Sequence record: PZ402303.1
Strand: one strand, 5' to 3'
DNA from: a phage
DNA length: 39,329 nt
Shown: positions 3,433 to 37,310 of the stretch, piece by piece
How the letters are laid out: each line of letters starts with the position of its first letter
How positions within the stretch are numbered: position 1 is the stretch's first letter
The notes under the pieces: model-generated
What the model was told of the DNA's origin: nothing
The model's database searches: none
What the model saw: only the letters and a program-made list of their open reading frames with translations
Position numbers and translations under genes: made by a program

Positions 3433-3455
3433 TAATACGACTCACTATTGGGAAG
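3433..3455 (+). promoter_or_regulatory. Phage RNAP promoter (phiOR-like)
   Basis: TAATACGACTCACTATT-GGGAAG. Confidence 0.75.
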
Positions 3456-3611
3456 GGCACCCTAAGACAACTTAAAGACACTTAAAGACTGCATATGCAA
3501 AGTGCATACTTAGTGACTACTCTTAGAGACCCTTACAGTGTGGGATGATAGTAATTGTAATTACATCCCTACTATCAGTGTAACCATCAAGTATAACAAG
3601 GAGGACGCTCT

Positions 3612-3767
3612 ATGCGCTTACTATCCGTGCTCAAGACACTGGCAACGCATCGAGTGACCTACAAATTTCTCGCTGTACTTGCTGCTTCCATCGGTCTCGC
3701 ATCTAGTGTTGAACACATCGGTGAACTGGAGACTCTGCTTTGTTCTCTACTCACTTGTGTTCCTTAG
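3612..3767 (+). CDS. Small protein, 51 aa (positional gp19.5 analogue)
   Basis: Strong RBS AAGGAGG 7 nt upstream; downstream of phiOR as gene 19.5 is in T7; not on ORF track because under 60 aa. Confidence 0.5.
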   Translation: MRLLSVLKTLATHRVTYKFLAVLAASIGLASSVEHIGELETLLCSLLTCVP

Positions 3768-3998
3768 ACTGCTCGTTGGCGCTTAACGCGCTCTTAGTGA
3801 TTATGGTCGATATACATCTTCCCTATAATCACTGTAAGAAGTCAACTCTAAGAGGTAGCCTTATGTATTCCTTAACGGTCTACAGGGTCTCTTAGGGTCT
3901 CTCACGTGGTCTAACCTTATGATAGCCACTCCAAGGATAACCTTATGAGAGACTTGATGTACCCCTTTAAGAATCCTACAGAAAAATCTGAGTGGGTA

Positions 3999-4175
3999 TC
4001 TCATAGTTCATACCAAGTGGTTTCCCCCCTGTAGGTAACTCTGTGGATAACCTGAGGATAACTCTGTGGATAACTTGTGGATAACTCTAGGTTAGAGGCT
4101 GTGTGGATAACTTTGGGTGAGACTGTTAGTAACTCTGTGGATAACTCTGTGTCTCTGTGTCCCTATCTGTAAGTG
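3999..4175. repeat. Probable terminal repeat of the linear virion genome (concatemer junction copy), boundaries approximate
   Basis: Begins TCTCATAG...TTTCCCCCCTGTAGG and ends GTGTCTCTGTGTCCCTATCTGT, resembling recalled T7 TR start and end; internal (a)actctgtggataac direct repeats; flanked by ccttatg-type short-repeat arrays (about 3860-3950 and 4185-4250). Confidence 0.45.
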
Positions 4176-4323
4176 ACCTTTGAGTTATCACCTTATGTTA
4201 TCACCTTATGACCCTTTAAGTATCACCTTATGGCTGGTTATCCTTATGTTAACCTTCAGTCGGTGCCTTCAGTCCATAGACCTATCGTTGCCACTCTTAG
4301 ACCAGCCTTAAATACCATACAGC

Positions 4324-4346
4324 TAATATGACTCACTATTGAGGAA
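4324..4346 (+). promoter_or_regulatory. Phage RNAP promoter (phiOL-like, degenerate)
   Basis: TAATATGACTCACTATT-GAGGAA. Confidence 0.6.
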
Positions 4347-4429
4347 TAGCTAATACTGGTCATCTTCCTTATAGGGATAACTTAAAGACTACTAAAAGAG
4401 ATACTTTGAGAATTCTTTAAGATTGAGTA

Positions 4430-4458
4430 TTGACATTGATAATAGCTTATGAGACTAT
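4430..4458 (+). promoter_or_regulatory. Host sigma70 early promoter candidate (A1-like)
   Basis: -35 TTGACA at 4430-4435; weak -10 (GACTAT) at about 17 nt spacing. Confidence 0.4.
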
Positions 4459-4564
4459 AGCAACCGTTGAGAGACACAACGCTACCAACCACTAGACAAG
4501 ACCGAGAGTTATCTAGTGAGGCTGAAGAGTCTCAAGTAGTCATCAACCAGACACACGAAAGTGG

Positions 4565-4593
4565 TTGACTCAACGAAAGCAATAACGTAGTAT
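4565..4593 (+). promoter_or_regulatory. Host sigma70 promoter candidate
   Basis: -35 TTGACT (4565-4570), 17-nt spacer, -10 TAGTAT (4588-4593). Confidence 0.45.
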
Positions 4594-4654
4594 AGCAGTC
4601 GTCAACAACTGGTCGCCCTCTGAAACAACATGAGGTGTCACGGTGAGAAAGGTG

Positions 4655-4684
4655 TTGACAAGCAGTAAAGATAAGATGTAAGAT
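4655..4684 (+). promoter_or_regulatory. Host sigma70 early promoter (A2-like)
   Basis: -35 TTGACA, 18-nt spacer, -10 TAAGAT; same architecture as recalled T7 A2. Confidence 0.6.
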
Positions 4685-4814
4685 GTACGACATGCAATAA
4701 GAGAGAACGGATAGGAACTGCGAAACCTGCCGGATACTCGCCAAGGATGAGGCACTGCTTATTGGAGTATGCAGACACGATAAGCACCACGTTATCTTCT
4801 AGTCAAATTAAGTG

Positions 4815-4843
4815 TTGACACGGTAACGAAAGCACGATAAGAT
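4815..4843 (+). promoter_or_regulatory. Host sigma70 early promoter (A3-like)
   Basis: -35 TTGACA, 17-nt spacer, -10 TAAGAT; downstream cagtgagtcaccacactgaaaggtgatgcggtctaacgaaacctgacc matches recalled T7 early leader. Confidence 0.6.
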
Positions 4844-4965
4844 GTACCACGAAATGACGGAACAGTGAGTCACCACACTGAAAGGTGATGCGGTCTAACG
4901 AAACCTGACCAAAGACGCTCTTTAACAATCTGGATAATAGCTCTTGAGTGTACCGTATAAGCGAA

Positions 4966-5008
4966 TAACTCAAGGTCGCACTGAAAGCGTGGCCTTTATG
5001 ATATTCAC
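4966..5008 (+). promoter_or_regulatory. RNase III-type processing hairpin (R0.3-like)
   Basis: aactcaaggtcgcactgaaagcgtggcctttatgatattcac. Confidence 0.6.
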
Positions 5009-5036
5009 TTAACGAACTAACATGAGGTAACACCTA

Positions 5037-5495
5037 ATGATTTTCACTAAAGAGCCTGCTAATGTCTTCTATGTACTGGTGTCAGCTTTCCGTTCCAACC
5101 TCGACGATGAGGTGAATATGAGTCGTCACCGCCACATGGTAAGCACTTTACGTGCCGCACCGGGTCTTTATGGCTCCGTTGAGTCAACCGATTTGACCGG
5201 GTGCTATCGTGAGGCAATCGCAAGCGCACCGACTGAGGAAAAAACGGTTCGTGTACGCTGCAAGGACAAGGCGCAGGCACTCAATGTTGCACGCTTAGCT
5301 TGCAATGAGTGGGAGCAAGATTGCGTACTGGTATACAAATCACAGACTCACACGGCTGGTCTGGTGTACGCTAAAGGAATCGACGGTTACAAGGCTGAAC
5401 GTCTGCCGGGTAGCTTCCAAGAAGTGCCTAAAGGCGCACCGCTTCAAGGTTGCTTTACGATTGATGAGTTCGGTCGCCGCTGGCAAGTACAGTAA
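5037..5495 (+). CDS. 0.3: S-adenosyl-L-methionine-cleaving anti-restriction protein (T3-type gene 0.3 SAMase / SAM lyase), 152 aa
   Basis: Near-identical over full length to recalled T3 SAMase (MIFTKEPANVFYVLVSAFRSNL...GRRWQVQ); first early gene after A promoters; RBS GAGGT. Confidence 0.9.
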   Translation: MIFTKEPANVFYVLVSAFRSNLDDEVNMSRHRHMVSTLRAAPGLYGSVESTDLTGCYREAIASAPTEEKTVRVRCKDKAQALNVARLACNEWEQDCVLVYKSQTHTAGLVYAKGIDGYKAERLPGSFQEVPKGAPLQGCFTIDEFGRRWQVQ

Positions 5496-5500
5496 GTGAT

Positions 5501-5565
5501 AAACTCAAGGTCGCTCAATATGAGTGGCCTTTCATGATTATCAGAGTGGCCTTTCATGATTATCA
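5501..5565 (+). promoter_or_regulatory. RNase III-type hairpin (R0.5-like) with a 22-bp tandem duplication of its 3' arm
   Basis: aaactcaaggtcgctcaatat then gagtggcctttcatgattatca twice (5522-5543 and 5544-5565). Confidence 0.5.
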
Positions 5566-5593
5566 CTTTGAAACAACGCACGGGATTAATATC

Positions 5594-5731
5594 ATGCTGA
5601 AACATTACGTCATGCCTATCCACACCAAGAACGGCGCTACAGTTTGCACACCTGATGGCTTCGCAATGAAACAACGAATCGAACGCCTTAAGCGTGAACT
5701 GCGCACAAATCGCAAGATCAACAATATCTAA
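5594..5731 (+). CDS. Small basic early protein, 45 aa
   Basis: ATG at 5594 within track ORF 5534..5731; weak SD (GGGA); occupies the 0.4-0.6 slot; basic C-terminus RIERLKRELRTNRK. Confidence 0.35.
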   Translation: MLKHYVMPIHTKNGATVCTPDGFAMKQRIERLKRELRTNRKINNI

Positions 5732-5836
5732 ATCTAATTACATTTGACACTGGATAATGCACGAAGTGAGCGCTAGCGACATCATGGGCGCTCTCTCTCC
5801 CTCTTAAAGTAAACTAACTAAATAGGACACAATCTA

Positions 5837-6934
5837 ATGAACTACACCGACATTCAGGCACGTCTGGCAATCATCAAGTCTCTCCCGATTAGTGAACTGG
5901 ACAAGCGCCAGCCTCTTTTGGTTGCACTGGCTGCTGACATCGTGAACGGTGAAACATGCGATGGTGACGATACAAACGGGTCGCAGTGTCTTGAGTATCA
6001 GGACTGGTGGAACACCTTGGGCGCTCTCATGCGTGATGCAGGTTTTCGTATGTTGGGTAATGGTCATTTTAGTGCGGCCTACTCGCATGAACTGTTACCG
6101 GGTCGAGTCGTCAAGGTTGGCTTTAAGAAAGAGGATTCAGGCGCTGCGTACACTGCGTTCTGTAGGATGCACCAAGGCCGAGCGGGTATCCCTAACGTCT
6201 ATCACGTAGCACGTCATGCAGGTTGCTATACGGTCGTACTGGACCACTTAAAAAGCTGTGACGACGATAATTATGACCATGAGGCATACGCTGACCTCGC
6301 ACGTTACTTTGTGGAGTCGGATTGCCATGACGCAAGCGACTTTGCACCGGGTGACTACGAGTTCATCGAGACTTGCAAAATGATTCGTGAGTTCTTCAAA
6401 GGGATTGCATCTTTCGACATGCATCGCGGGAACATTATGTTCGACGATAACGATGTTCCGTACATCACTGACCCGGTTAGTTTCTCACATGACCGTGAAC
6501 GTGAGGGCGGTTTGCCTCTGGACCCTGAAGAACTGCTGGCTGAGGTCGAGGCTGTAGCGCAAGAACGCATGATTGAACGTTGCCGCAACCGCAAGGCCAA
6601 GTGTGACCCTAACGGCTCCTTTCAGGTTAACCGCAAGGCCGCAATGAAACGCCGCAAGCGTAACCGTAAGTTACGTGCTAAACATGCAGCGGAAGGAATG
6701 CACCAGTTTGTCAAAGGGCGGCTTGAGCGTAGAGCTATTGACCGAAATGAACGCCGTGCTGAGATGTTTATGGGGTCTGCATGGCATTACGCATGGTTGC
6801 ATAATGGTAACGCAACGTTCCGCAAGGTTGAACAAGTGAACGGCCTCAAGTGGCAACTAGGGGACCACCTAGCAATCCAAGCGGGTCTCCCTTTGAACAT
6901 CGACAAGTTACTTGACGCACAACTGAAAGGCTGA
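5837..6934 (+). CDS. 0.7: Ser/Thr protein kinase with host-shutoff C-terminal domain (gp0.7), 365 aa
   Basis: Strong similarity to recalled T7 gp0.7 (...ELDKRQ...GFKMLGNGHFSAAYSH...KVGFKKEDSGAAYTAFCRM...IPNVY...HAGCYTVVLD...). Confidence 0.9.
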   Translation: MNYTDIQARLAIIKSLPISELDKRQPLLVALAADIVNGETCDGDDTNGSQCLEYQDWWNTLGALMRDAGFRMLGNGHFSAAYSHELLPGRVVKVGFKKEDSGAAYTAFCRMHQGRAGIPNVYHVARHAGCYTVVLDHLKSCDDDNYDHEAYADLARYFVESDCHDASDFAPGDYEFIETCKMIREFFKGIASFDMHRGNIMFDDNDVPYITDPVSFSHDREREGGLPLDPEELLAEVEAVAQERMIERCRNRKAKCDPNGSFQVNRKAAMKRRKRNRKLRAKHAAEGMHQFVKGRLERRAIDRNERRAEMFMGSAWHYAWLHNGNATFRKVEQVNGLKWQLGDHLAIQAGLPLNIDKLLDAQLKG

Positions 6935-6943
6935 TAAGGTGTA

Positions 6944-6984
6944 TCTTCAAGGTCGGCACTGACTGCTGGCCTTTATAGATAAAC
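6944..6984 (+). promoter_or_regulatory. RNase III-type hairpin (R1-like)
   Basis: tcttcaaggtcggcactgactgctggcctttatagataaac. Confidence 0.55.
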
Positions 6985-7007
6985 TTTCTTAACAACGTGA
7001 GGCAACA

Positions 7008-9659
7008 ATGACTAACGTAATCAACGCACCAAAGAACGACTTCTCTGACATCGCTAACGCAATCATGCCGTACAACATTCTGGCTGACCATTACGGTGCA
7101 CAGCTTGCAGCTACGCAGTTACAGCTTGAGCACGAAGCGCACACTGAGGGTGAGAAGCGTTTTCTTAAGGCAATGGAACGTCAAATCAAAGCGGGTGAGT
7201 TCGGTGATAACGCAGTGGCTAAACCGCTCCTGTCATCTCTCGCACCGAAGTTTATCGAGGCGTGGAACACTTGGTTCACTGAAGTGGAAGCGAAGCGTGG
7301 CAAGCGTCCAGTGGCTTACAATCTGGTACAGAAGGTTGCACCTGAAGCTGCTGCATTCATCACACTGAAGGTCACGCTGGCTTGCTTGACGAAAGAAGAG
7401 TTCACCAACCTGCAATCGGTCGCTACTAAGATTGGTCGTAGCATTGAAGATGAACTGCGTTTTGGTCGCATCCGTGACGAAGAAGCGAAGCACTTTAAGA
7501 ACCACGTACAGGAGGCACTGAACAAGCGCGTTGGCATCGTCTACAAGAAAGCATTCATGCAAGCCGTAGAGGGTAAGATGCTTGATGCTGGTCAACTGCA
7601 AACCAAGTGGACTACATGGACACCTGAAGAATCAATTCACGTTGGTGTGCGCATGTTGGAACTGCTCATCGGGTCTACTGGTCTCGTTGAGTTACACCGC
7701 CCGTTCGCTGGGAACATCGAGAAGGATGGCGAGTACATCCAGTTAACAGAACAATATGTAGACCTGCTGTCTAAACGTGCTGGTGCACTGGCTGCAATCG
7801 CTCCGATGTATCAGCCTTGCGTGGTCCCTCCGAAGCCTTGGACTTCTCCGGTTGGTGGTGGCTATTGGGCGGCTGGTCGCAAGCCTCTCTCTCTGGTTCG
7901 TACTGGTAGCAAGAAGGGACTGGAACGTTACAACGATGTGTACATGCCTGAAGTTTACAAGGCGGTGAACATCGCACAGAATACTCCTTGGAAGATTAAC
8001 AAGAAGGTTCTGGCAGTGGTCAACGAGATTGTGAACTGGAAGCATTGCCCGGTTGAAGATGTACCTGCTCTCGAACGTGGTGAACTGCCTGTCAAACCTG
8101 AAGACATCGACACGAACGAAGCGGCTCTGAAAGCGTGGAAGAAAGCGGCCTCCGCAATCTATCGCAAAGAGAAAGCACGAGTTTCTCGCCGCATGAGCAT
8201 GGAGTTCATGTTAGGTCAGGCCAATAAGTTCGCACAGTTCAAAGCTATCTGGTTCCCAATGAACATGGACTGGCGCGGTCGTGTGTATGCTGTGCCGATG
8301 TTTAACCCGCAAGGCAACGACATGACCAAAGGCTTGTTGACGCTCGCTAAAGGTAAACCAATCGGTGTCGATGGGTACTACTGGCTGAAGATTCACGGTG
8401 CTAACACTGCTGGCGTGGACAAGGTGGACTTTGCAGAACGCATCAAGTTCATTGATGACAACCATGAGAACATCATGAGCGTAGCTGCTGACCCGATTGC
8501 TAACACTTGGTGGGCCGAGCAAGACTCTCCGTTCTGCTTCCTCGCGTTCTGCTTCGAGTATGCAGGAGTCCAGCACCACGGGATGAACTACAACTGCTCT
8601 CTTCCGCTGGCGTTTGATGGTAGCTGCTCCGGTATTCAGCACTTCTCCGCAATGCTTCGTGATGAAATTGGTGGTCGCGCTGTTAACTTACTGCCGAGCA
8701 AGGAAGTCCAAGACATCTACCGCATCGTAGCGGAACGTGTCAACGAGATTCTGAACCAAGATGTTATCAACGGGACCGACAACGAAGTAGAGACCGTGAC
8801 CAACAAGGACACAGGGGAAATCACTGAGAAGCTCAAGCTGGGTACTAAAGAACTAGCTGGTCAGTGGCTGGCCTACGGTGTGACCCGCAAGGTCACTAAG
8901 CGTTCGGTTATGACGTTGGCTTACGGTTCCAAAGAGTACGGATTCCGTGACCAAGTTCTTGAGGATACCATTCAGCCAGCTATCGACGATGGCAAGGGCT
9001 TGATGTTCACTCAACCGAACCAAGCGGCTGGCTATATGGCTAAACTGATTTGGAACGCGGTAACGGTGACAGTGGTCGCAGCGGTTGAAGCAATGAACTG
9101 GCTGAAGTCTGCGGCTAAACTTCTAGCTGCTGAAGTCAAGGACAAGAAGACCAAAGAGGTTCTCCGCAAGCGCTGCGCGGTACATTGGGTTACTCCTGAT
9201 GGCTTCCCGGTCTGGCAGGAATACAAGAAGCCAGTACAGACCCGCTTGAACCTGATGTTCTTAGGCCAGATTCGTCTACAGCCTACCGTGAACACCAACA
9301 AGGATAGCGGAATTGATGCTCGTAAGCAGGAGTCAGGCATCGCACCTAACTTTGTCCACTCAATGGATGGAAGCCACCTGCGCATGACTGTGGTCCGCTC
9401 CAATGAGGTCTACGGTGTGGAATCGTTCGCACTGATTCACGACTCCTTTGGTACTATCCCTGCTGATGCTGGCAACCTGTTTAAAGCAGTGCGCGAAACG
9501 ATGGTCAACACTTACGAAGAGAACGATGTACTAGCAGACTTCTATGAGCAATTTGCTGACCAGTTACATGAATCACAGCTTGACAAGATGCCTGAGATGC
9601 CAGCTAAAGGTTCTCTGGACCTGCAAGAAATCCTTAAGTCAGACTTTGCGTTTGCCTAA
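7008..9659 (+). CDS. 1: Single-subunit DNA-directed RNA polymerase (gp1), 883 aa
   Basis: Same length as T7 RNAP; conserved blocks PCVVPPKPW, WFPYNMDWRGRVYAV-like, DGSCSGIQHFSAMLRDE, HDSFGT, C-terminal FAFA. Confidence 0.97.
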   Translation: MTNVINAPKNDFSDIANAIMPYNILADHYGAQLAATQLQLEHEAHTEGEKRFLKAMERQIKAGEFGDNAVAKPLLSSLAPKFIEAWNTWFTEVEAKRGKRPVAYNLVQKVAPEAAAFITLKVTLACLTKEEFTNLQSVATKIGRSIEDELRFGRIRDEEAKHFKNHVQEALNKRVGIVYKKAFMQAVEGKMLDAGQLQTKWTTWTPEESIHVGVRMLELLIGSTGLVELHRPFAGNIEKDGEYIQLTEQYVDLLSKRAGALAAIAPMYQPCVVPPKPWTSPVGGGYWAAGRKPLSLVRTGSKKGLERYNDVYMPEVYKAVNIAQNTPWKINKKVLAVVNEIVNWKHCPVEDVPALERGELPVKPEDIDTNEAALKAWKKAASAIYRKEKARVSRRMSMEFMLGQANKFAQFKAIWFPMNMDWRGRVYAVPMFNPQGNDMTKGLLTLAKGKPIGVDGYYWLKIHGANTAGVDKVDFAERIKFIDDNHENIMSVAADPIANTWWAEQDSPFCFLAFCFEYAGVQHHGMNYNCSLPLAFDGSCSGIQHFSAMLRDEIGGRAVNLLPSKEVQDIYRIVAERVNEILNQDVINGTDNEVETVTNKDTGEITEKLKLGTKELAGQWLAYGVTRKVTKRSVMTLAYGSKEYGFRDQVLEDTIQPAIDDGKGLMFTQPNQAAGYMAKLIWNAVTVTVVAAVEAMNWLKSAAKLLAAEVKDKKTKEVLRKRCAVHWVTPDGFPVWQEYKKPVQTRLNLMFLGQIRLQPTVNTNKDSGIDARKQESGIAPNFVHSMDGSHLRMTVVRSNEVYGVESFALIHDSFGTIPADAGNLFKAVRETMVNTYEENDVLADFYEQFADQLHESQLDKMPEMPAKGSLDLQEILKSDFAFA

Positions 9660-9666
9660 CGGAATC

Positions 9667-9689
9667 TAATACGACTCACTATTGGGAGA
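9667..9689 (+). promoter_or_regulatory. Phage RNAP promoter (phi1.05/phi1.1A-like)
   Basis: TAATACGACTCACTATT-GGGAGA followed by 5' hairpin GGGAGACCC..GGGTTTCCC. Confidence 0.8.
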
Positions 9690-9750
9690 CCCTTGGGGGT
9701 TTCCCTACTTTAAGATAACTTTAAGTTTAACTTTAAGAGGAAACATAATC

Positions 9751-10308
9751 ATGTTTACTTTCATCACTTCAGTAGGCGCTCTCGTAGCAACCATTCTTGC
9801 AGCAACATACTACAACCGTTCAAAGGTATTTCTCACCAAGCTAATCAAAGAAGAGAAGAACTCTCACGCACTCAAAGAGAGACTTGAAGATGGGTGGCTA
9901 GAGAGGCAGGAACTAGCTGGTCGAATCCGTACTTTAGAGTTCGAACAACAATATGACATGTCGAACCAACGAGAACTCATTGAGCGTCTACGCGCTGAGG
10001 CAATGGAGTACCGCAAGGAACTTAAAGAGGCAAAGAGTACCATCCGTGAGTACACATACAGTGACATCACGTCTATCAAGTTTACTGCTCACATCCCGGA
10101 TGCTGGATGGAAGCGCACTGAGTTCAAGCTAGGCATAGGGTCTTGCGGCAAAGAGGTTACGTGTTTGCACTGGAAAGAACAGTCGGACCGCTACCTGCTG
10201 ACACAGACGTGCACTGATGGTGAGCGCAAAGAGTTCACCTATTATAAGAAAGACGTAGCTGGTCGCATTGAGATTGCACGTAAGGTTGCAGACAATACGA
10301 CTCACTAA
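9751..10308 (+). CDS. Hypothetical membrane-anchored coiled-coil protein, 185 aa (positional analogue of T3-lineage gene 1.05)
   Basis: ATG at 9751 with RBS AAGAGG; N-terminal hydrophobic helix (FTFITSVGALVATILAATYY), charged coiled-coil segment, C-terminal domain with 3 Cys; the track ORF start at 9682 is a TTG inside the promoter. Confidence 0.7.
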   Translation: MFTFITSVGALVATILAATYYNRSKVFLTKLIKEEKNSHALKERLEDGWLERQELAGRIRTLEFEQQYDMSNQRELIERLRAEAMEYRKELKEAKSTIREYTYSDITSIKFTAHIPDAGWKRTEFKLGIGSCGKEVTCLHWKEQSDRYLLTQTCTDGERKEFTYYKKDVAGRIEIARKVADNTTH

Positions 10309-10315
10309 TGGGAAA
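10293..10315 (+). promoter_or_regulatory. Phage RNAP promoter (phi1.1B-like)
   Basis: CAATACGACTCACTAAT-GGGAAA; overlaps the last codons of the preceding CDS. Confidence 0.75.
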
Positions 10316-10324
10316 CACTGAAAG

Positions 10325-10366
10325 TTAAACTCAAGGTCATCTACATGGTGGCCTTCATGATTAACT
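10325..10366 (+). promoter_or_regulatory. RNase III-type hairpin (R1.1-like)
   Basis: aaactcaaggtcatctacatggtggccttcatgattaac. Confidence 0.55.
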
Positions 10367-10397
10367 GTCAACGATACTACCAAGAGGAAATAACATT

Positions 10398-10547: not shown

Positions 10548-10819
10548 TGGGTCGCTTATACAGTGGTAACTTAATAGCATACAAAGACGCTATCGAACGG
10601 CTTAAAGAAGACCACGATGCAAATGTGGTCGTTGAGACTTATCGCTATGAGGACTTCACACAGCGACGGATGGTCGCCGGAGAGACACTTCGAGTGGTCT
10701 TACGGGATGGCTTAATGCTGACCGCTAAGTGTTTCGAACAGGACGACGAAGACGTTCGTTGCAATGCACAGACTGAATGGCTTCGTAAGGTACACAACGA
10801 CCTGAAGCACTGGAAGTAA
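10547..10819 (+). CDS. 1.2: gp1.2-like protein (host dGTPase inhibitor family), 90 aa
   Basis: N-terminus MGRLYSGNL and C-terminus L.DWK-like as in recalled T7 gp1.2; RBS GGAAGGAGG. Confidence 0.8.
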   Translation: MGRLYSGNLIAYKDAIERLKEDHDANVVVETYRYEDFTQRRMVAGETLRVVLRDGLMLTAKCFEQDDEDVRCNAQTEWLRKVHNDLKHWK

Positions 10820-10839
10820 TACGACTCACTATTGCGAGA
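10817..10839 (+). promoter_or_regulatory. Phage RNAP promoter (phi1.3-like)
   Basis: TAATACGACTCACTATT-GCGAGA. Confidence 0.75.
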
Positions 10840-10842
10840 GGT

Positions 10843-10882
10843 AAACTAAAGGTCATCTACACGGTGGCCTTTGTGATTAACT
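10843..10882 (+). promoter_or_regulatory. RNase III-type hairpin (R1.3-like)
   Basis: aaactaaaggtcatctacacggtggcctttgtgattaac. Confidence 0.55.
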
Positions 10883-12146: not shown

Positions 12147-12180
12147 GGTCAGTCCTTAACGGGCTGGCCTTTTTGTGTTT
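12147..12180 (+). terminator. Rho-independent early terminator (TE-like)
   Basis: Stem GGTCAGTCC / GGGCTGGCC with loop TTAAC followed by TTTTTGTGTTT. Confidence 0.6.
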
Positions 12181-12202
12181 CTATACGACTCACTATGGAG
12201 GA
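12180..12202 (+). promoter_or_regulatory. Phage RNAP promoter (phi1.5-like, variant)
   Basis: TCTATACGACTCACTAT-GGAGGA; the initiating region doubles as RBS. Confidence 0.6.
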
Positions 12203-12210
12203 ACTACCTC

Positions 12211-12291
12211 ATGCTATTTCTAATTGCTGCTGCTATCTTTGCCACGTTTGCCTTCGTTATCATTGACGACAACTGCTGGCCGGATTGCTAA
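12211..12291 (+). CDS. Hydrophobic micro-protein, 26 aa (MLFLIAAAIFATFAFVIIDDNCWPDC)
   Basis: RBS GGAGGA 8 nt upstream; single TM-like segment; sits between two phage promoters. Confidence 0.45.
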   Translation: MLFLIAAAIFATFAFVIIDDNCWPDC

Positions 12292-12311
12292 TACGACTCA
12301 CCTATGGAGGA
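12289..12311 (+). promoter_or_regulatory. Phage RNAP promoter (phi1.6-like, variant)
   Basis: TAATACGACTCACCTAT-GGAGGA. Confidence 0.6.
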
Positions 12312-12984: not shown

Positions 12985-13172
12985 GCACTCTGAATAAAGG
13001 GTCACTGGTAAACGGTGACAAGAAGTTCTTCGCTACGGTAGAAGGCCAAGGCCAATCGTTCGAAGTACCTGTGTTCGCTACGTCTCTTGAAGAGGCCAAT
13101 GAGTTAGCTGAGTGGCAATACGTCCCTGCTGGCTTCGCTGTAACACGCATCCGTCCAGACCGTAAGGTTTAA
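12981..13172 (+). CDS. 2: Inhibitor of host RNA polymerase (gp2), 63 aa
   Basis: Strong similarity to recalled T7 gp2 (...[25 protein letters not shown]); RBS GGAAGGAGAGAGG. Confidence 0.9.
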
Positions 13173-13192
13173 TAGGACTCACTAATGGGAGA
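13170..13192 (+). promoter_or_regulatory. Phage RNAP promoter (phi2.5-like)
   Basis: TAATAGGACTCACTAAT-GGGAGA with 5' hairpin GGGAGACACTAACGTTTCCCC. Confidence 0.75.
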
Positions 13193-14849: not shown

Positions 14850-14942
14850 ATGATGGTTATCCACGAGATGGGTCTGTACGATTTGATTTATCGCCTCGCG
14901 TTCATGCTGGCAATGGTCTACATTCTTACCCGCAAGGATTAA
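14850..14942 (+). CDS. Small protein, 30 aa (occupies the 3.7/3.8 slot)
   Basis: ATG-ATG at 14850; weak SD (GGGG); no HNH motifs, unlike T7 gp3.8. Confidence 0.3.
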   Translation: MMVIHEMGLYDLIYRLAFMLAMVYILTRKD

Positions 14943-14961
14943 TAGAACTCACTATGGGAGA
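14939..14961 (+). promoter_or_regulatory. Phage RNAP promoter (phi3.8-like, variant)
   Basis: TTAATAGAACTCACTAT-GGGAGA with hairpin GGGAGAGCCgaaaGGTTTCTCCC. Confidence 0.6.
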
Positions 14962-15012
14962 GCCGAAAGGTTTCTCCCTTTGTTCGCTAAAATTGTATAA
15001 GGAGTAATCACT

Positions 15013-16966: not shown

Positions 16967-16989
16967 CAATACAACTCACTAATGGGACA
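16967..16989 (+). promoter_or_regulatory. Phage RNAP promoter (phi4.3-like)
   Basis: CAATACAACTCACTAAT-GGGACA with hairpin GGGACAGACACTCTGTTCCC. Confidence 0.7.
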
Positions 16990-17789: not shown

Positions 17790-17812
17790 TGTATGAAATC
17801 TATTCAACTCAC
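17790..17812 (+). promoter_or_regulatory. Phage RNAP promoter (phi4.7-like)
   Basis: CTATTCAACTCACTAAT-GGGAGA. Confidence 0.7.
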
Positions 17813-17830
17813 TAATGGGAGAACAACAAT

Positions 17831-18229
17831 ATGCGTAATCGTAATGTAATCGAAGCTGAAATCTCTAAGCTGCAAGCTGAACTGGCTGATGTCAAAGAGT
17901 ATGAATGTGCTCGTGACTCTGCGGTACACATCCTGAAGAACTTAGGGTGGACTCGCTCCCGTGGTCAATGGGTGAAACCTGCCAAGGCAAACACCAAGCT
18001 GTTCGATAAGGACACCATGACCCACATTAAGGCTGGTGACTTCTGCGCATCAACTGAGACATCATCTCTATGGTACGTGCGCACGGTCGATGGCAACATC
18101 TGCTGGTGCTCACGAGTGTCCCGCATTACTCCTAACGGAACCTTAGTGACCAGCAACAACGTTGGAATCAAAGCTGAGAACCTGAAGGTAATCAACGTGA
18201 AAGACTATATGGGATACACCCATCGTTAA
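17831..18229 (+). CDS. Hypothetical protein, 132 aa (positional gp4.7 analogue)
   Basis: Initiating GGGAGA region serves as SD; N-terminal coiled-coil-like segment, Cys-containing C-terminal half. Confidence 0.7.
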   Translation: MRNRNVIEAEISKLQAELADVKEYECARDSAVHILKNLGWTRSRGQWVKPAKANTKLFDKDTMTHIKAGDFCASTETSSLWYVRTVDGNICWCSRVSRITPNGTLVTSNNVGIKAENLKVINVKDYMGYTHR

Positions 18230-21888: not shown

Positions 21889-21911
21889 CAATACGACTCA
21901 CTATTGAGAGG
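21889..21911 (+). promoter_or_regulatory. Phage RNAP promoter (phi6.5-like)
   Basis: CAATACGACTCACTATT-GAGAGG. Confidence 0.75.
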
Positions 21912-24497: not shown

Positions 24498-24517
24498 TAC
24501 GACTCACTAATGGGAGA
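24495..24517 (+). promoter_or_regulatory. Phage RNAP promoter (phi9-like)
   Basis: TAATACGACTCACTAAT-GGGAGA with hairpin GGGAGAGACAATACGTCCTCCC. Confidence 0.8.
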
Positions 24518-25488: not shown

Positions 25489-25511
25489 TAATACGACTCA
25501 CTATTGGGAGA
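25489..25511 (+). promoter_or_regulatory. Phage RNAP promoter (phi10-like, exact consensus)
   Basis: TAATACGACTCACTATT-GGGAGA. Confidence 0.85.
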
Positions 25512-26868: not shown

Positions 26869-26910
26869 AAACCCCTTGGGTGCCTTCACGGGTGCTTGAG
26901 GGGTTTTTTC
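26869..26910 (+). terminator. Late transcription terminator (T-phi-like)
   Basis: AACCCCTTGGGTGCCTTCACGGGTGCTTGAGGGGTTTTTTC, closely resembling recalled T7 T-phi. Confidence 0.8.
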
Positions 26911-26929: not shown

Positions 26930-27520
26930 ATGCGTTCCTATGAAACAACCCTAGAGACAGGTGAAGAGTTGGCTGCTGTCAATGACATCTTGGCCTCTAT
27001 CGGTGAACCACCAGTATCTACTCTGGAGGGTGACTCTAACGCCGATGTTGCCAACGCCCGTCGAGTTCTCAATAAGATTAACCGACAGATTCAGTCTAAG
27101 GGCTGGACGTTCAACATTGAGGAAGGTCAACAGTTGGTCCCCGATGTGTTCAACGGTCTGATTCCATATATGTCAGACTACCTGTCTGTGCTCTCTCAAG
27201 GTGGTGCGACTGCTTACGTCAACCGTGGTGGTTACGTCTTTGACAGGACCACTGGCACCGATGTGTTCCAGAACCCTATCACAGTGACCATCATCAAACT
27301 GAGAGAGTTCTATGAGATGCCTGAATGCTTCCGCTACTGGATTGTCACCAAGGCCGCTCGACAGTTCAACAACCGATTCTTTGGTGCACCTGAGATTGAT
27401 GCTGTGCTGGCTGAAGAAGAACAAGAAGCGAAGATGCAGTGTCATGAGTACGAACTGGACTTCGGTAACTTCAACATGCTTGATGGTGATGCCTTCACTG
27501 GTGGTCTACTGTCTCGTTAA
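26930..27520 (+). CDS. 11: Tail tubular protein A (gp11), 196 aa
   Basis: Same length and position as T7 gp11; RBS AAGGAG. Confidence 0.95.
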
Positions 27521-27539
27521 TAACTTAAGGAGGTCTCTA

Positions 27540-29918
27540 ATGGCTCTTATTTCACAATCCGTCAAGAACCTGAAGGGCGGTATCAGTCAACAGCCGAACA
27601 TCTTAAGGTTCCCCGAACAGGGTTCCGAACAGATTAACGGTTGGTCTTCGGAGACCGAGGGCTTACAGAAGCGTCCACCTTTTGTCTTCACTAAGACCAT
27701 TGGAGACCAGAATGCCCTTGGTGCCAAGCCTCTCGTTCACCTCATCAACCGTGATAGTGTCGAACAGTATTACGTTGTGTTCACCGGACAGGGAGTACGA
27801 GTGTTTGACTTGAATGGCAAAGAGTACGCTGTGAAAGGTGACTTGTCGTATGTCAAAGTGGGAAACCCTCGTGATGACTTGAGGATGGTCACGGTAGCTG
27901 ACTATACGTTTATCGTAAACCGTAACATGGTTGTCCGTGCTGATACGGCCCCGCTGTATACACTCAAGGAGAATGGCGACTGTCTGATTAACGTTCGCGG
28001 TGGTCAGTATGGTCGAACCTTAGCATTCACCATTAATGGCGTAAGGATTGCATATGAGATTGCCCGTGGTGATAAACCTGAGCACGTAAACGAAACTGAC
28101 GCACAGTGGCTAGTTAAGAAACTTGCTGGCCTAGCTCGTGCACATGGTTCCTTTAAGGACTGGAAGTTCAACGAAGGGCCGGGGTTCATCCATGTTATTG
28201 CTCCGGGTAACAGCCAGATTAACTCACTGTCCACTGAAGATGGTTACGCCAACCAGTTGATGAACGCAGTAATGCACACCAGCCAGTCATTCAGTAAGTT
28301 GCCTCTTGAGGCTCCTAATGGATACACGGTGAAGATTGTTGGGGACACCTCTAAGACTTCTGATATGTTCTACGTTCAATATGACAACGTGAAGAAGGTG
28401 TGGAAAGAGGTTGCTGGATGGGGAGTACAGAAGGGACTCAATGGAGGCACTATGCCACACGCATTGGTTCGCCAGTCTGATGGTTCCTTCCAGATGCAGG
28501 TGCTACCGTGGGCGCAACGAACTTGTGGTGACATGGATACTAACCCGACTCCATCCATCGTTGACCAGAAGATTAACGATGTGTTCTTCTTCCGTAACCG
28601 CTTAGGGTTCCTAGCTGGTGAGAACATTGTGATGTCTCGTACCTCCAAGTATTTCTCACTGTTCCCTGCGTCAGTGGCTAACCTGTCAGATGATGACCCG
28701 ATTGATGTGGCTGTATCTCACAACCGTATCTCAATCCTGAAGTATGCCGTACCGTTCTCCGAAGAGTTGCTGCTATGGTCTGACCAAGCACAGTTCGTCC
28801 TGTCTGCTTCTGGCATCCTCTCACCGAAGTCTGTAGAGTTGAACCTTACGACTGAGTTCGACGTGTCCGACCGTGCGCGCCCTTATGGTGTTGGTCGGGG
28901 CGTGTACTTTGCGTCACCCCGTGCTTCCTATACGTCACTCAACCGATACTATGCAGTACAGGACGTTAGCTCCGTTAAGTCCGCTGAAGATATGAGTGCT
29001 CACGTTCCAAGTTACATCCCCAATGGTGTGTTCTCTATCCGTGGCTCAGGTACTGAGAACTTCATCTCCGTGCTATCTGCCAACGCTCCTAGTAAAATCT
29101 TCCTCTACAAGTTCCTCTACTTGAACGAAGAGATTGCTCAACAGTCATGGTCCCATTGGGAACTCGGAAGTAACGTAACGGTTCTGGCTTGTGACTCTAT
29201 CGGCTCAACGATGTACCTTGTGTTGCGCAATCAGTCACACACTTGGATGTGCCGAGCACACTTTACGAAGAACAGCATTGACTTCCCTGATGAGCCTTAT
29301 CGTCTGTACATTGACAACAAGGTCAAGCATGTGATTCCTAAAGGTGCGTACAACGATGACACCTACACGACCACTATCAAGCCTGTGGACATCTACGGTA
29401 TGAAGTATTGGACTGGTAGGTTCTACATTGTGTCCTCTGATGGTCTGGTCTCGTGGTTCGACCCTCCGCGTGGTGGTTGGCCTAATGGCGTTCCTGTGCT
29501 GTCAATGAGTGGGAACCGAGAAGGCGAGACTATCTATATCGGAATGGCAATCAACTTCCGCTATGTGTTCTCTAAGTTCCTCATCAAGAAGACCGCCGAC
29601 GATGGCTCTACAGCTACCGAGGATATTGGTCGCTTGCAGCTTCGCCGTGCATGGGTTAACTATGAGGATTCTGGTGCATTCGTTGTGGAAGTTGAGAACA
29701 CGTCACGTCTGTTCAGCTACGATATGGCAGGTGCCCGTTTGGGTTCCAATGCTCTACGTGCTGGTGGACTTAACGTTGGCACAGGCCAGTTCCGCTTCCC
29801 GGTCGTTGGCAACGCACAGTTGAATGAAGTCCGTATTATCTCTGACCACACCACACCACTGAACGTTATTGGTTGTGGATGGGAGGGTAACTACCTTCGT
29901 CGTTCTTCTGGTATCTAA
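27540..29918 (+). CDS. 12: Tail tubular protein B (gp12), 792 aa
   Basis: MALISQS.KNLKGGISQQP.IL...GWSSETEGLQKRPP matches recalled T7 gp12 start; RBS AAGGAGG; track ORF 27312 starts upstream. Confidence 0.95.
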   Translation: MALISQSVKNLKGGISQQPNILRFPEQGSEQINGWSSETEGLQKRPPFVFTKTIGDQNALGAKPLVHLINRDSVEQYYVVFTGQGVRVFDLNGKEYAVKGDLSYVKVGNPRDDLRMVTVADYTFIVNRNMVVRADTAPLYTLKENGDCLINVRGGQYGRTLAFTINGVRIAYEIARGDKPEHVNETDAQWLVKKLAGLARAHGSFKDWKFNEGPGFIHVIAPGNSQINSLSTEDGYANQLMNAVMHTSQSFSKLPLEAPNGYTVKIVGDTSKTSDMFYVQYDNVKKVWKEVAGWGVQKGLNGGTMPHALVRQSDGSFQMQVLPWAQRTCGDMDTNPTPSIVDQKINDVFFFRNRLGFLAGENIVMSRTSKYFSLFPASVANLSDDDPIDVAVSHNRISILKYAVPFSEELLLWSDQAQFVLSASGILSPKSVELNLTTEFDVSDRARPYGVGRGVYFASPRASYTSLNRYYAVQDVSSVKSAEDMSAHVPSYIPNGVFSIRGSGTENFISVLSANAPSKIFLYKFLYLNEEIAQQSWSHWELGSNVTVLACDSIGSTMYLVLRNQSHTWMCRAHFTKNSIDFPDEPYRLYIDNKVKHVIPKGAYNDDTYTTTIKPVDIYGMKYWTGRFYIVSSDGLVSWFDPPRGGWPNGVPVLSMSGNREGETIYIGMAINFRYVFSKFLIKKTADDGSTATEDIGRLQLRRAWVNYEDSGAFVVEVENTSRLFSYDMAGARLGSNALRAGGLNVGTGQFRFPVVGNAQLNEVRIISDHTTPLNVIGCGWEGNYLRRSSGI

Positions 29919-29948
29919 AATTAGAAACACCCCGACTCAATAAGTGAA

Positions 29949-29971
29949 CAATACGACTCACTATTGGGAAG
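29949..29971 (+). promoter_or_regulatory. Phage RNAP promoter (phi13-like)
   Basis: CAATACGACTCACTATT-GGGAAG. Confidence 0.8.
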
Positions 29972-29999
29972 GGGGTTTATACTTAAAGGGAGAAACTCT

Positions 30000-30413: not shown

Positions 30414-30415
30414 CT

Positions 30416-31021: not shown

Positions 31022-31035
31022 AGGAGGTACAGTTT

Positions 31036-33315: not shown

Positions 33316-33338
33316 CAGACCACGATAGGAGGTTCCAA

Positions 33339-36300: not shown

Positions 36301-37286
36301 GTACTTCCAACTACATTCTGGACATGGCCCGTCAAGGTGTCATGGGAGATGTGGTAACTCATGCCATTACTGGTAAGGGTGCCAACAAGTGGATTAAAGG
36401 AGACATGCTGAAATCTGCGAGTATCTCTAAGGAACAATGGGAAGGCATTCAGAACCTCATCCGCGAGAACGTCACTCAAGGCGCTGACGGCAAGTACACC
36501 TTCAAGGACAAGCGCAAGCTGGCTAATGACCCTCGTGCTATGGACTTGTGGCGCTTAGCTGATAAGGTTGCCGATGAGACAATGCTGAGACCTCACAAGG
36601 TTTCACTTCAGGATTCCCATGCGTTTGGTGCTGCTGCCAAGCTGGTGCTTCAGTTTAAGTCGTTTGTCATCAAGTCGATGAACTCTAAGTTTATCCGCTC
36701 TGGTCACGAGGCTATGAAGAATCACCGAGCTATGGACATGGCGCTGACCTACGCAATCTCTGGAGGTATCGCTGGTTCCTACTACGTGGCACAGGCCCAC
36801 TTGAAGGCTGCTGGTCTACCTAAAGAGCAACAGAAGGACTACTTGAAGAAAGCTCTGGACCCTAAGATGATTGCCTATGCTGCTGCGTCCCGAAGTTCAC
36901 ACTTAGGTTCCCCGTTGAGTATCGCAAACTTCGCTATGGGTGCTGCTGGTTACGACCAAGGTCTCATGGTCCGCTCTACTATTCTCCCGAAAGGTGAGGA
37001 CAAGCGGGAACGGAATAAGGCGGTAACTTCCCGTGACATGAGTGAATCCATTATGGGTGCTATTGGTGAACAGGTTCCTGCTCTTGGCTTCGCGGGTGCT
37101 GCTCTAGCTACTGGTCGAAATGCTTATGGTGTCCTTACGGCTCCAAACAAAGTGACCGAGCGTGAGATGATGACTGGCTTAATGAACGCCCACCGAGAGA
37201 TGATTCCTAACGACCCAATCTCTCAACAGATGCTCATTAAGTTCTATGAGGCCAACGGTGTTCACATTAAGGCTGACAAGAAGTAA
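33339..37286 (+). CDS. 16: Internal virion (core) protein D with N-terminal lytic transglycosylase domain (gp16), 1315 aa
   Basis: GTG start with RBS TAGGAGG; N-terminus MDKY... and SLT-like motif ES.F.PTA.S.TGP.G.MQFTKAT as in recalled T7 gp16. Confidence 0.97.
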   Translation: MDKYNPNEPHEYDALFQQAADTHGVSYGLLRKVGWVESRFKPTAQSPTGPRGVMQFTKATGQAYGLQNDEDFTDPAKSIDAGARYLADLVKKYDGDELKAALAYNQGEGRNGKPQLEAYDSGNFAGIGDEGRNYLRSLLDVAKSPKSGDIESFGGITPKAKGIPFDAAMSGIGKKGKVTTELPESHEMSFQGKEQAAPNQPFGKDYWEAKGTTLDEANERSTFFGFGNAAEAELSNSTLGVAFRAGKRDNGFDVLTDVLQPTRFNSHIWSPEELEKIRNEVKNPAYMNVVLGGSAENLDELIKLANENFELDSKAADAGLGAKLSAGIIGAGVDPLTYVPIAGSAAKGFKLVNKALMVGAQAGALNVASEGLRTSVAGGDAHYAEAALAGMLLAGGLTAVADGVAAGLRKSGAEQIENPFAAAQMRFEARETARNTGGYDASRMPPSEDRVFSQHNGVEYAPLETEPGAVVLKDGSIISDTNLANPMTAKEFAEVDPERAAWGLPMRGLSEIGLRTLRSEHAEIRGLAKDLVRSPTGMESGSHGKFGATASDIKERLHSNNQRTYNDLYGAMKEAMADPEWSVGMFKQGAQGARQEIYRRVAIAIERPELQANLTKAERKVMDIMKEHFDLKREMMENPSMFGNKATSIFPNSRHKGTYVPHVYSREAKQLYSQALGGSDGLQEAIAASWMTSYRSRPEVKTRVDEHLAETLGIDPKAVTEEMVMKHASDKAYGIAKTDEFNSSSVIDDNIEGLVGIENNSFLEARNLFDSDMPVTLPNGQQFSVNDLRDFDMKHVMPAYDRRVDGDIAIMGGTGKTTAELKDYIMALDKKSEGKGTMKGEVEALKDTVKILTGRARRNQDTMGDTMVRAMSDMSFFTKNAYMGLQNLTEISGLLAKGNTRAMLHGIPALRDLAFRNKPVSGKELKELHSMVFGKEFDDLIRPTRQDIIQRLRESTDTPDVAAKVVGTVKHTTQELAARSPFTKFLNGTSNYILDMARQGVMGDVVTHAITGKGANKWIKGDMLKSASISKEQWEGIQNLIRENVTQGADGKYTFKDKRKLANDPRAMDLWRLADKVADETMLRPHKVSLQDSHAFGAAAKLVLQFKSFVIKSMNSKFIRSGHEAMKNHRAMDMALTYAISGGIAGSYYVAQAHLKAAGLPKEQQKDYLKKALDPKMIAYAAASRSSHLGSPLSIANFAMGAAGYDQGLMVRSTILPKGEDKRERNKAVTSRDMSESIMGAIGEQVPALGFAGAALATGRNAYGVLTAPNKVTEREMMTGLMNAHREMIPNDPISQQMLIKFYEANGVHIKADKK

Positions 37287-37287
37287 A

Positions 37288-37310
37288 CAATACGACTCAC
37301 TATTGGGAAG
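37288..37310 (+). promoter_or_regulatory. Phage RNAP promoter (phi17-like)
   Basis: CAATACGACTCACTATT-GGGAAG with hairpin GGGAAGGCTCACATAGCTTCCC. Confidence 0.8.

Follow-up and report, generated by a model that had tools for sequence, protein, structure and literature searches.

A BA14-like Berlinvirus genome with T7-type promoters bearing T at -1 and a T3-type SAM lyase gene

Covariation and experiment indicate that T7-like RNA polymerases (RNAPs) owe their promoter specificity mainly to three residues of the specificity loop and to five bases of the promoter (PMC11880802). The promoters of T7 carry A at position -1 in 15 of 16 cases, and T7 phi2.5 is a natural promoter with T at this position. 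The 2008 GenBank record of phage BA14 (EU734171) annotates 16 promoters with the consensus TAATACGACTCACTA(T/A)T-GGGAGA, where the hyphen before G, here and below, stands between -1 and +1. BA14 also has its own S-adenosylmethionine (SAM)-cleaving enzyme (SAMase) encoded by gene 0.3 (152 amino acids), while T7 has Ocr instead. In 1982, cross-transcription experiments compared the BA14 RNAP/promoter system with those of T7 and T3; according to a secondary source, it differs functionally from both (PMC13600099).

Identity of the phage and its relatives

The window analyzed here is the whole 39,329-nucleotide stretch of record PZ402303.1. Genome comparison showed 99.98% nucleotide identity to Escherichia phage nasanit (PV245933.1, Berlinvirus). 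BA14 was 91.7% identical over 96.1% of the window, or roughly 88% overall, and Carena was 91.8% identical over 94.8%, while T7, T3, and phiYeO3-12 each gave about 72% identity over about 70%. The ICTV places phages in one genus when nucleotide identity across the whole genome to genus members is at least 70%. The overall identity to BA14 lies above this value, and PV245933 is assigned to Berlinvirus. A collinear T7-like gene order with a single-subunit RNAP was evident from tblastn comparison of each gene with BA14, T7, and T3, from the annotation of PV245933, and from the Pfam RNA_pol and RPOL_N domains of gp1. On these sequence comparisons, we identify the phage as Escherichia phage nasanit, an already deposited, BA14-like T7 relative of the genus Berlinvirus, subfamily Studiervirinae. 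Its assembly in the window is circularly permuted and begins with gene 17.5.

Nasanit and the window agree in their promoters, RNAP, gene 0.3, and the order of their genes. Absent from the window are 297 bp (record 5587-5883) containing a homologue of phiYeO3-12 gene 0.45; the window also has one additional C at 4024 and five substitutions, and begins its circular permutation 44 bases later. The BA14 tail fiber gp17 and gp4.7 are 72% and 63% identical in amino acid sequence to their counterparts in the window. The nasanit record contains an 868-amino-acid "tail protein," and a disruption of gene 11 or its fusion to gene 12 was considered. This was rejected, as an intact gene 11 of 196 amino acids, nearly identical to BA14 gp11, is present at 26930-27520; the 868-amino-acid protein is an over-extended annotation of gene 12. 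Scanning all of the window with Rfam returned nothing above threshold.

The initial annotation had described the phage as neither T7 nor T3, which agrees with a backbone about equally distant from both. However, a nearly identical genome, that of nasanit, had been deposited, and the same promoters were annotated in BA14, at 92% identity. This is essentially the outcome that the initial annotation had named as refuting its reading. What the initial annotation observed is largely real but ordinary and already known. The discovery value is correspondingly small: the genome is deposited, the promoters are annotated in the BA14 GenBank record, and the SAMase differs very little from the T3 enzyme of solved structure.

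Gene 0.3 and the transferred cassette

Gene 0.3 (5037 to 5495, plus strand) encodes a 152-amino-acid SAM lyase, identified by Pfam, PDB, and phage protein comparison. The product matched Pfam PF23780 (S-AdoMet_lyase; E = 2.5e-42; score 144.4 bits, cut-off 28) over profile positions 1 to 132 of 133, and 150 of its 152 residues are identical to the T3 SAMase in PDB entries 7OCK (E = 8e-101) and 8BB1, where the chain is named SAM hydrolase or S-adenosylmethionine lyase. It is 100% identical to gp0.3 of phiYeO3-12, 99% identical to that of T3, and 89% identical in amino acid sequence to the BA14 allele. A tblastn search of the window with T7 Ocr (gp0.3) gave no match at E values up to 10. The window, which differs from T7 in encoding a SAMase and no Ocr, thus has the T3-type gene that had been proposed for it. 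The 99 to 100% identity to the T3 and phiYeO3-12 proteins suggests that the product cleaves SAM and has an anti-restriction effect.

High-scoring segment boundaries delimit a Teetrevirus-type cassette at 4838 to 5543 (plus strand), which comprises a leader with an RNase III-like site, gene 0.3, and a downstream RNase III-like stem-loop. The SAMase genes of T3 and phiYeO3-12 are flanked by a leader and RNase III-like stem-loops of the same type. Positions 4838-5543 are 95.2% identical to phiYeO3-12 positions 839-1540, compared to about 72% genome-wide, and positions 4801-5543 are 90.5% identical to T3. Identity to phiYeO3-12 reaches 98.0% in the bin 5001-5500, versus 62 to 81% in the other bins, while identity to BA14 falls to 79% in this bin; the 0.3 region of BA14 is about 79% identical in nucleotide sequence to that of the window, and a wider alignment with BA14 (4152-5473) is 78.9% identical. 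Among 50,697 phage records, the whole cassette arrangement was found only in nasanit and Carena. The gene 0.3 allele is common in T3/phiYeO3-12-like records and occurs in two Berlinviruses only. This distribution points to transfer from a Teetrevirus to the Berlinvirus lineage of nasanit and Carena, in which a block of about 0.7 kb from a T3/phiYeO3-12-type phage would have replaced a BA14-type allele.

Exchange of early anti-restriction genes is a familiar pattern among T7-like phages. The block of about 0.7 kb with gene 0.3 is the only real recombinant element, so that the earlier suggestion of recombinant early functions holds for positions 4838-5543 and is narrower than was claimed. Its modest value is that of a clean case in which a 0.7-kb anti-restriction cassette has seemingly passed from Teetrevirus to Berlinvirus with RNase III-type stem-loops at its bounds. 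A small early open reading frame (5594 to 5731, plus strand) is 84% identical in nucleotide sequence to T7 gene 0.6A (T7 positions 1636-1769), and nothing in BA14 or T3 matched it at the nucleotide level; the gene 0.6A of BA14 differs from that of the window. A T7-like gene 0.6 adjoins the acquired block.

A SAMase of T3 type next to promoters with the core of T7 could suggest a previously undescribed hybrid in which a T3 early module was joined to the T7 transcription system. Whole-genome comparison refutes this reading, which we consider extremely improbable. The backbone is as distant from T7 as from T3, the RNAP is 76% identical to that of T7 and 75% to that of T3, and the genome as a whole aligns with BA14 and nasanit. 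In addition, BA14 already pairs its own SAMase with the same 16 promoters, so the combination of a SAMase and T7-type promoters, which the initial annotation took for mosaicism, is no sign of it. The combination is better described as a SAMase in a Berlinvirus backbone whose RNAP is predicted to recognize promoters of T7 type and not of T3 type.

Promoters and other transcription signals

A search with TAATACGACTCACTA allowing up to 2 mismatches found 15 matches on the plus strand, compared to 0.06 expected by chance. A looser scan that required the CTCAC core added a 16th promoter at 17800, and the same core scan of the minus strand of the window found none. No T3-type promoter (AATTAACCCTCACTAAA) was found in the window at up to 3 mismatches. 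All 16 promoters for the phage RNAP are on the plus strand, and the outermost, at 3433 and 37288-37310, bound the region to which the initial annotation referred. The same 16 are annotated at orthologous places in BA14. Their start sites and use are predicted from homology with T7 and BA14.

Four promoters have TAATACGACTCACTATT before the start site: phiOR, which follows gene 19 and is orthologous to the annotated BA14 phiOR (3433-3455, then GGGAAG), phi1.05 (9667-9689, GGGAGA), phi1.3 (10817-10839, GCGAGA), and phi10 (25489-25511, GGGAGA). CAATACGACTCACTATT is found at phi6.5 (21889-21911, GAGAGG), phi13 (29949-29971, GGGAAG), and phi17 (37288-37310, GGGAAG). The others are phiOL, placed as in BA14 (4324-4346, TAATATGACTCACTATT-GAGGAA), phi1.1 (10293-10315, CAATACGACTCACTAAT-GGGAAA), phi1.5 (12181-12203, CTATACGACTCACTATG-GAGGAA), phi1.6 (12289-12311, TAATACGACTCACCTAT-GGAGGA), phi2.5 (13170-13192, TAATAGGACTCACTAAT-GGGAGA), phi3.8 (14940-14962, TAATAGAACTCACTATG-GGAGAG), phi4.3 (16967-16989, CAATACAACTCACTAAT-GGGACA), phi4.7, which has 4 mismatches to the 15-mer and is identical in sequence to the phi4.7 annotated in BA14 (17800-17822, CTATTCAACTCACTAAT-GGGAGA), and phi9 (24495-24517, TAATACGACTCACTAAT-GGGAGA).

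The consensus is TAATACGACTCAC-TA(T/A)T-GGGAGA. CTCAC is invariant in all 16 promoters, while the exact 15-mer occurs in only 5, the rest differing from it at 1 to 4 positions. The proposal of 16 promoters with a T7-type and not a T3-type core is therefore correct in number and class, but the full core is not present throughout. Similarly, T at -1, which had been ascribed to all 16, is found in 14; phi1.5 and phi3.8 have G (both CACTATG-G), although phi3.8 can also be read as having a spacing shorter by one base. The G of phi1.5 is kept in all five Berlinviruses scanned. The sequence around the start of phi1.6 is CACCTAT-G.

Promoters with T at -1 make up 14 of 16 in BA14 and in CarlSpitteler, 12 of 15 in Carena, and 12 of 15 hits in Berlin, the Berlin count including one hit, at 1713, that is seemingly spurious. 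At orthologous promoters (phiOL, phi1.3, phi2.5, and phi17), -2 alternates between A and T while -1 remains T. In the five genomes scanned, T at -1, which lies in the melted initiation region, appears to be a fixed trait of Berlinvirus and is not peculiar to this phage. The "slightly shifted" consensus is thus a systematic difference from T7 at -1 that is normal for the genus. A full-text literature search for the promoter sequence as an exact string retrieved no paper, and the Berlinvirus papers found by the literature search do not describe the consensus, so the GenBank record of BA14 constitutes the prior description of this promoter set.

Three sigma-70-like early host promoters, equivalent to A1 to A3, were located by consensus scan upstream of gene 0.3 (4565-4593, 4655-4684, and 4815-4843, plus strand), and host RNAP promoters are annotated at the same relative place in BA14. 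A protein kinase gene 0.7 of Berlinvirus type follows at 5837 to 6934 (plus strand). A hairpin resembling the early terminator TE, followed by a T run, lies just upstream of phi1.5 (12147 to 12169, plus strand), and a consensus scan found a Tphi-like terminator hairpin after gene 10 (26883 to 26902, plus strand). BA14 has TE and a terminator annotated at the same relative places.

The RNA polymerase and the base at -1

Gene 1 (7008 to 9659, plus strand) encodes a single-subunit RNAP of 883 amino acids with Pfam RNA_pol and RPOL_N domains. Its product is 99.0% identical to the BA14 RNAP, and identities within Berlinvirus are 97.5 to 99.3%. At 76.4% identity to the T7 enzyme and 75.1% to the T3 enzyme, it differs from both, as the initial annotation had noted, and is further from T7 RNAP than T3 RNAP is (82%). 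All of the T7 base-reading residues checked (R96, K98, R746, N748, R756, and Q758) are nevertheless retained, as is W422. In the specificity loop, the window enzyme and the RNAPs of four other Berlinviruses share R746, N748, R756, and Q758 with T7, in contrast to the D at 748 of T3 and phiYeO3-12. We take N748, R756, and Q758 to be equivalent to the three published specificity residues and the five published bases to be those at about -12 to -8. On the promoter side, TAATACGACTCAC contains the CGACT at -12 to -8 and the AT-rich -17 to -13 of the T7 class, and the T7 promoters agree with those of the window in consensus from -17 to -3, in number, and in placement. The initiation region departs from the TATA-GGG of the T7 class, with its A at -1.

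Since every T7 base-reading residue checked is kept, the window RNAP is, by published rules, predicted to be an enzyme of T7 specificity in a more divergent protein. Since -1 is T or G and never A, the pair is best described as combining T7-like binding with a BA14/Berlinvirus promoter subtype. This gives the RNAP a modest interest: it appears to retain the T7 promoter-binding code with a different base fixed at -1, although it is more divergent from T7 RNAP than the T3 enzyme. In a published assay, T7 RNAP activity on TAATACGACTCACTATTGG, the A-1T promoter, was 73.3 compared to 169 ± 19 for the wild type, or about 43%, a value obtained in vitro with one barcode (PMC5937735, S2 file). With specificity residues and bases equal to those of T7 and this much activity of T7 RNAP on A-1T, the relevance to orthogonal expression that had been suggested is weak.

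The best explanation as a whole, and a highly probable one, is that this is a nasanit-type Berlinvirus with a standard T7-type program, T at -1 as in the rest of the genus, and one gene 0.3 block of Teetrevirus origin. By homology and gene order, host RNA polymerase would transcribe the early genes from the sigma-70 promoters (about 4565-4843) to the terminator at 12147-12169. Among these, gene 0.3 would, by analogy with T3 SAMase, provide a SAM lyase that destroys S-adenosylmethionine and blunts SAM-dependent restriction, and gene 1 would provide the phage RNAP, which would then transcribe from the 16 promoters. Promoter positions -17 to -5 would be bound as in T7, with R96 and K98 in the AT-rich loop and R746, N748, R756, and Q758 in the specificity loop.

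Why T became fixed at -1 can be read in two further ways. It may be a neutral variant, spread from promoter to promoter in the ancestor of Berlinvirus through gene conversion or concerted evolution, a possibility that we regard as rather unlikely. The initiation region is tolerant, as T7 RNAP retains about 80 to 95% of wild-type activity on a T-2A promoter in addition to its partial activity on A-1T (PMC5937735), and T7 phi2.5 shows that T at -1 occurs naturally. However, -2 varies independently among orthologous promoters, which suggests that homogenization is not strong, and T at -1 is kept in 12 to 14 promoters per genome though the genomes have diverged elsewhere.

The fixation of -1 while -2 is free to vary in five Berlinvirus genomes, with A fixed in T7, suggests selection on -1. 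The window RNAP differs from T7 RNAP by E222G, which is genus-wide, by V237I, and in the intercalating hairpin, which is PFAGNIEKDG in place of QNAGVVGQDS. E222 lies in the auxiliary helix, and in evolved T7 RNAPs the substitution E222K changes how promoters are used (PMC8874028). T at -1 and the genus-specific changes (E222G and the hairpin PFAGN(V/I)EKDG) could thus form a co-adapted specificity element that makes the pair distinct from, and partly orthogonal to, that of T7, but we judge this unlikely. T7 RNAP does lose about half of its activity on A-1T, but a twofold effect, measured with one barcode in vitro, is far short of orthogonality. T7 has the same base-reading residues and the same five key bases in its promoters, and the initiation region is not among the key positions of the large covariation study (PMC11880802). 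The functional difference between BA14 and T7 or T3 that the secondary source reports for the 1982 cross-transcription is hard to reconcile with a specificity of T7 type alone (PMC13600099). A co-evolved initiation-region element, through which BA14-type RNAPs would prefer TAWT-G over TATA-G, is likewise improbable in our estimate. If true, it would explain that reported difference despite identical upstream recognition and would constitute a new axis of initiation-region selectivity, missed by covariation studies.

Separately from the standard T7-type program favored here, an exact 23-mer scan of IMG/VR found the form with T at -1 in 18 stretches and the T7 form in 51, on T7-like contigs of about 38 to 41 kb.

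Genome identity and close relatives

A whole-genome comparison, proposed in the initial annotation, placed the phage within a known genus. In a megablast search with window 1-25000 as the query against 50,697 phage records, the sole match at 100% coverage and a rounded identity of 100.0% was Escherichia phage nasanit (PV245933.1), classified as Autotranscriptaviridae; Studiervirinae; Berlinvirus. Full comparison gave 99.98% identity: five substitutions separate the two, and the window has one extra C at 4024 and lacks the 297-bp record segment 5587-5883. The sequences are circularly permuted, with the window starting at gene 17.5 and the first 44 bases of the record forming its last 44. The next relatives in the megablast search were Carena, CarlSpitteler, P483/P694, 285P, and BA14. 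Binned whole-genome comparison gave 91.7% identity over 96% of the length for BA14, 91.8% over 95% for Carena, and only ∼72% over ∼70% for T7, T3, and phiYeO3-12.

The extra C falls within the C run TTTCCCCCCTG in noncoding DNA at the genome end; a difference in homopolymer length or a sequencing error is its probable cause. The nasanit record omits gene 11 and contains an 868-aa “tail protein” (window 27312-29918). Because the window keeps an intact gene 11 (26930-27520, 196 aa, nearly identical to BA14 gp11), this protein was rejected as an over-extended gene 12 call.

Phage promoters and the base at -1

Promoters were sought with TAATACGACTCACTA at up to 2 mismatches and with a looser scan demanding the invariant CTCAC core. 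The first search yielded 15 sites, all of them + strand matches, where 0.06 would be expected by chance, and the looser scan added a 16th at 17800 and found no promoter on the minus strand of the window. No T3-type promoters were found in the window at up to 3 mismatches. The 16 promoters (3433, 4324, 9667, 10293, 10817, 12181, 12289, 13170, 14940, 16967, 17800, 21889, 24495, 25489, 29949, and 37288; all +) agree in number and position with the initial annotation. When numbered by alignment to the -17 to +6 frame of T7, all 16 carry G at +1, 10 carry T and 6 carry A at -2, and 14 carry T at -1, the other two (12181 and 14940, both CACTATG-G) carrying G. The statement that all have a T7-type core with T at -1 was therefore slightly overstated, and the exact 15-mer is present at only 5 of the 16 sites. 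The CACTATG-G form of phi1.5 (12181-12203) and phi3.8 (14940-14962) occurs in all five Berlinviruses scanned and is a conserved weak-promoter variant, in which -1 may be G or the spacing may be shorter by one base.

The GenBank entry of BA14 (EU734171) annotates 16 promoters (phiOL, 1.05, 1.1, 1.3, 1.5, 1.6, 2.5, “3.8,” 4.3, 4.7, 6.5, 9, 10, 13, 17, and phiOR) with sequences the same or nearly the same as those of the window; the two sets share TAATACGACTCACTATTGGGAGA, CACTAAT-G variants, two CACTATG-G sites, and a CACCTAT-G site. The promoter consensus is already on record in this entry. The phage had been presented as a relative that is neither T7 nor T3, with a slightly shifted promoter consensus, but it is essentially identical to one deposited phage and its consensus is annotated in BA14, so these features were already known.

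The same scan found T at -1 in 14/16 promoters of BA14, 14/16 of CarlSpitteler, 12/15 of Carena, and 12/15 hits in Yersinia phage Berlin, where the hit at 1713 looks spurious. In contrast, T7 has A at -1 in 15/16 promoters, the single T being that of phi2.5. Among orthologous promoters, A and T interchange at -2 (phiOL, phi1.3, phi2.5, and phi17), while -1 is constantly T. We therefore conclude that T at -1 is a conserved trait shared across the genus rather than a peculiarity of this phage, and that some selection probably acts on it.

RNA polymerase and promoter use

Gene 1 (7008-9659, +) encodes the phage RNA polymerase gp1 (883 aa; Pfam RNA_pol and RPOL_N). It is 99.0% identical to BA14 gp1, 97.5 to 99.3% identical to other Berlinvirus polymerases, and, as initially noted, distinct from those of both T7 (76.4%) and T3 (75.1%), which are 82% identical to each other. 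In T7 RNA polymerase, N748 reads -10/-11, R756 reads -9, and Q758 reads -8 within the specificity loop, residues 739 to 770 (PMC5937735). Alignment with the T7, T3, and phiYeO3-12 enzymes, after the initial proposal to align this loop, showed that gp1 retains N748, R756, Q758, and R746, along with R96 and K98 of the AT-rich loop, while the T3 and phiYeO3-12 enzymes have D748, K96, and R98. Changes from T7 in the specificity loop are conservative only (I743V, F755I, I761V, and E768G). Genome mining, covariation, and experiments assigned the specificity of most T7-like polymerases mainly to three loop residues and five promoter bases (PMC11880802, 2025). We take these to be the equivalents of N748, R756, and Q758 and bases at about -12 to -8, so by this rule gp1 would fall on the T7 node.

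Two features that set the genus apart from T7, E222G and the intercalating hairpin, lie outside the base-reading residues. All Berlinvirus polymerases examined have G at the T7 E222 position in the auxiliary helix, and E222K in evolved T7 polymerases changes promoter usage (PMC8874028). The hairpin (residues 232 to 241) reads PFAGN(V/I)EKDG in Berlinvirus versus QNAGVVGQDS in T7. As clues to specificity, both are leads only. At residue 237, the window and Berlin have I, and BA14, Carena, and CarlSpitteler have V.

In a barcoded promoter library scored as RNA/DNA (PMC5937735, text and S2 file), T7 RNA polymerase gave 73.3 on the A-1T promoter TAATACGACTCACTATTGG in a single measurement, ∼43% of the wild type (169 ± 19), and 138 to 161 on T-2A. 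This indicates that the strongest of the phage promoters would be active with T7 RNA polymerase. The suggested relevance to orthogonal expression is thus unpromising in the direction of T7 polymerase on phage promoters. A 2026 paper (PMC13600099) cites Mertens and Hausmann (1982) for cross-transcription results by which BA14 “differs functionally” in its polymerase-promoter system from both T7 and T3. It is unlikely that T at -1 reflects polymerase co-adaptation.

By homology with T7, T3, and BA14, three sigma-70-like promoters (4565-4843) would drive early genes 0.3 to 1.3 as far as a hairpin and T-run terminator (12147-12169), all located by sequence scan, and the gene 0.3 SAM lyase would remove the cofactor of SAM-dependent restriction. 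The 16 promoters would then serve gp1 for the middle and late genes, and a Tphi-like terminator, also located by sequence scan, follows gene 10 (26883-26902). The polymerase would bind -17 to -5 as T7 RNA polymerase does, melt the segment from -4 to -1, which consists of A and T only (TATT or TAAT), and start at the +1 G.

Gene 0.3 and early-region exchange

Gene 0.3 (5037-5495, +) is a 152-aa open reading frame matching Pfam S-AdoMet_lyase (E = 2.5e-42). Its product is identical to T3 SAMase (PDB 7OCK/8BB1) at 150/152 residues, 100% identical to gp0.3 of phiYeO3-12 and Carena, and 89% identical to that of BA14. No homologue of Ocr, the T7 DNA mimic, was found in the window, and the initial assignment to the T3 type stands. 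The pairing of SAMase with T7-type promoters had been read as a sign of mosaicism. Because BA14 and CarlSpitteler also carry SAMase, this pairing is the normal Berlinvirus state and is no evidence for hybrid origin. The observation is real and nonrandom, but the features concerned are known ones of a Berlinvirus already deposited.

The claim of recombinant early functions holds in a narrower, unsurprising form, that of a gene 0.3 cassette (4838-5543). This segment is 95.2% identical in nucleotides to phiYeO3-12 839-1540, and window 4801-5543 is 90.5% identical to T3, whereas the gene 0.3 region is only ∼79% identical to BA14. In the binned profile, bin 5001-5500 reaches 98.0% to phiYeO3-12 and 94.2% to T3, against ∼62 to 81% in other fully aligned bins, and identity to BA14 falls to 79%. 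A total of 51 phage records carry the allele at 95 to 99% identity, and many of these are from phages of Klebsiella, Serratia, Citrobacter, Shigella, or Yersinia. Only nasanit and Carena have the full arrangement of this 0.3, the 0.6 that follows it, and a Berlinvirus 0.7. On the basis of this similarity and distribution, we conclude that a Teetrevirus-type cassette displaced the resident allele in the nasanit/Carena sublineage, with the direction taken from the distribution.

The segment directly downstream, 5594-5727, shares 84% identity with T7 gene 0.6A and lacks any nucleotide match in BA14. Yersinia phage Berlin lacks gene 0.3; vB_ShiP-A7, P694, and AV103 have both SAMase and an Ocr-like antirestriction gene annotated in the early region, where P151 has only the Ocr-like gene annotated. 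This differing content indicates that the early region is an exchange hot spot in Berlinvirus, with an antirestriction module that varies greatly among members of the genus; such exchange is familiar in T7-like phages.

The 297 bp absent at 5543/5544 (nasanit 5587-5883) hold a 66-aa open reading frame homologous to phiYeO3-12 gene 0.45. At the junction, GAGTGGCCTTTCATGATTATCA, which forms the 3′ half of an RNase III-type stem-loop, is duplicated in tandem. The homologue is also missing from Carena and thus seems to be gained or lost as a unit flanked by repeated stem-loops.

Most other window proteins are 94 to 100% identical to those of BA14, but the tail fibre (gene 17, 37357-39285) and gp4.7 (17831-18229) share only 72% and 63% amino acid identity, respectively. 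These two genes are further local replacements, probably linked to host range.
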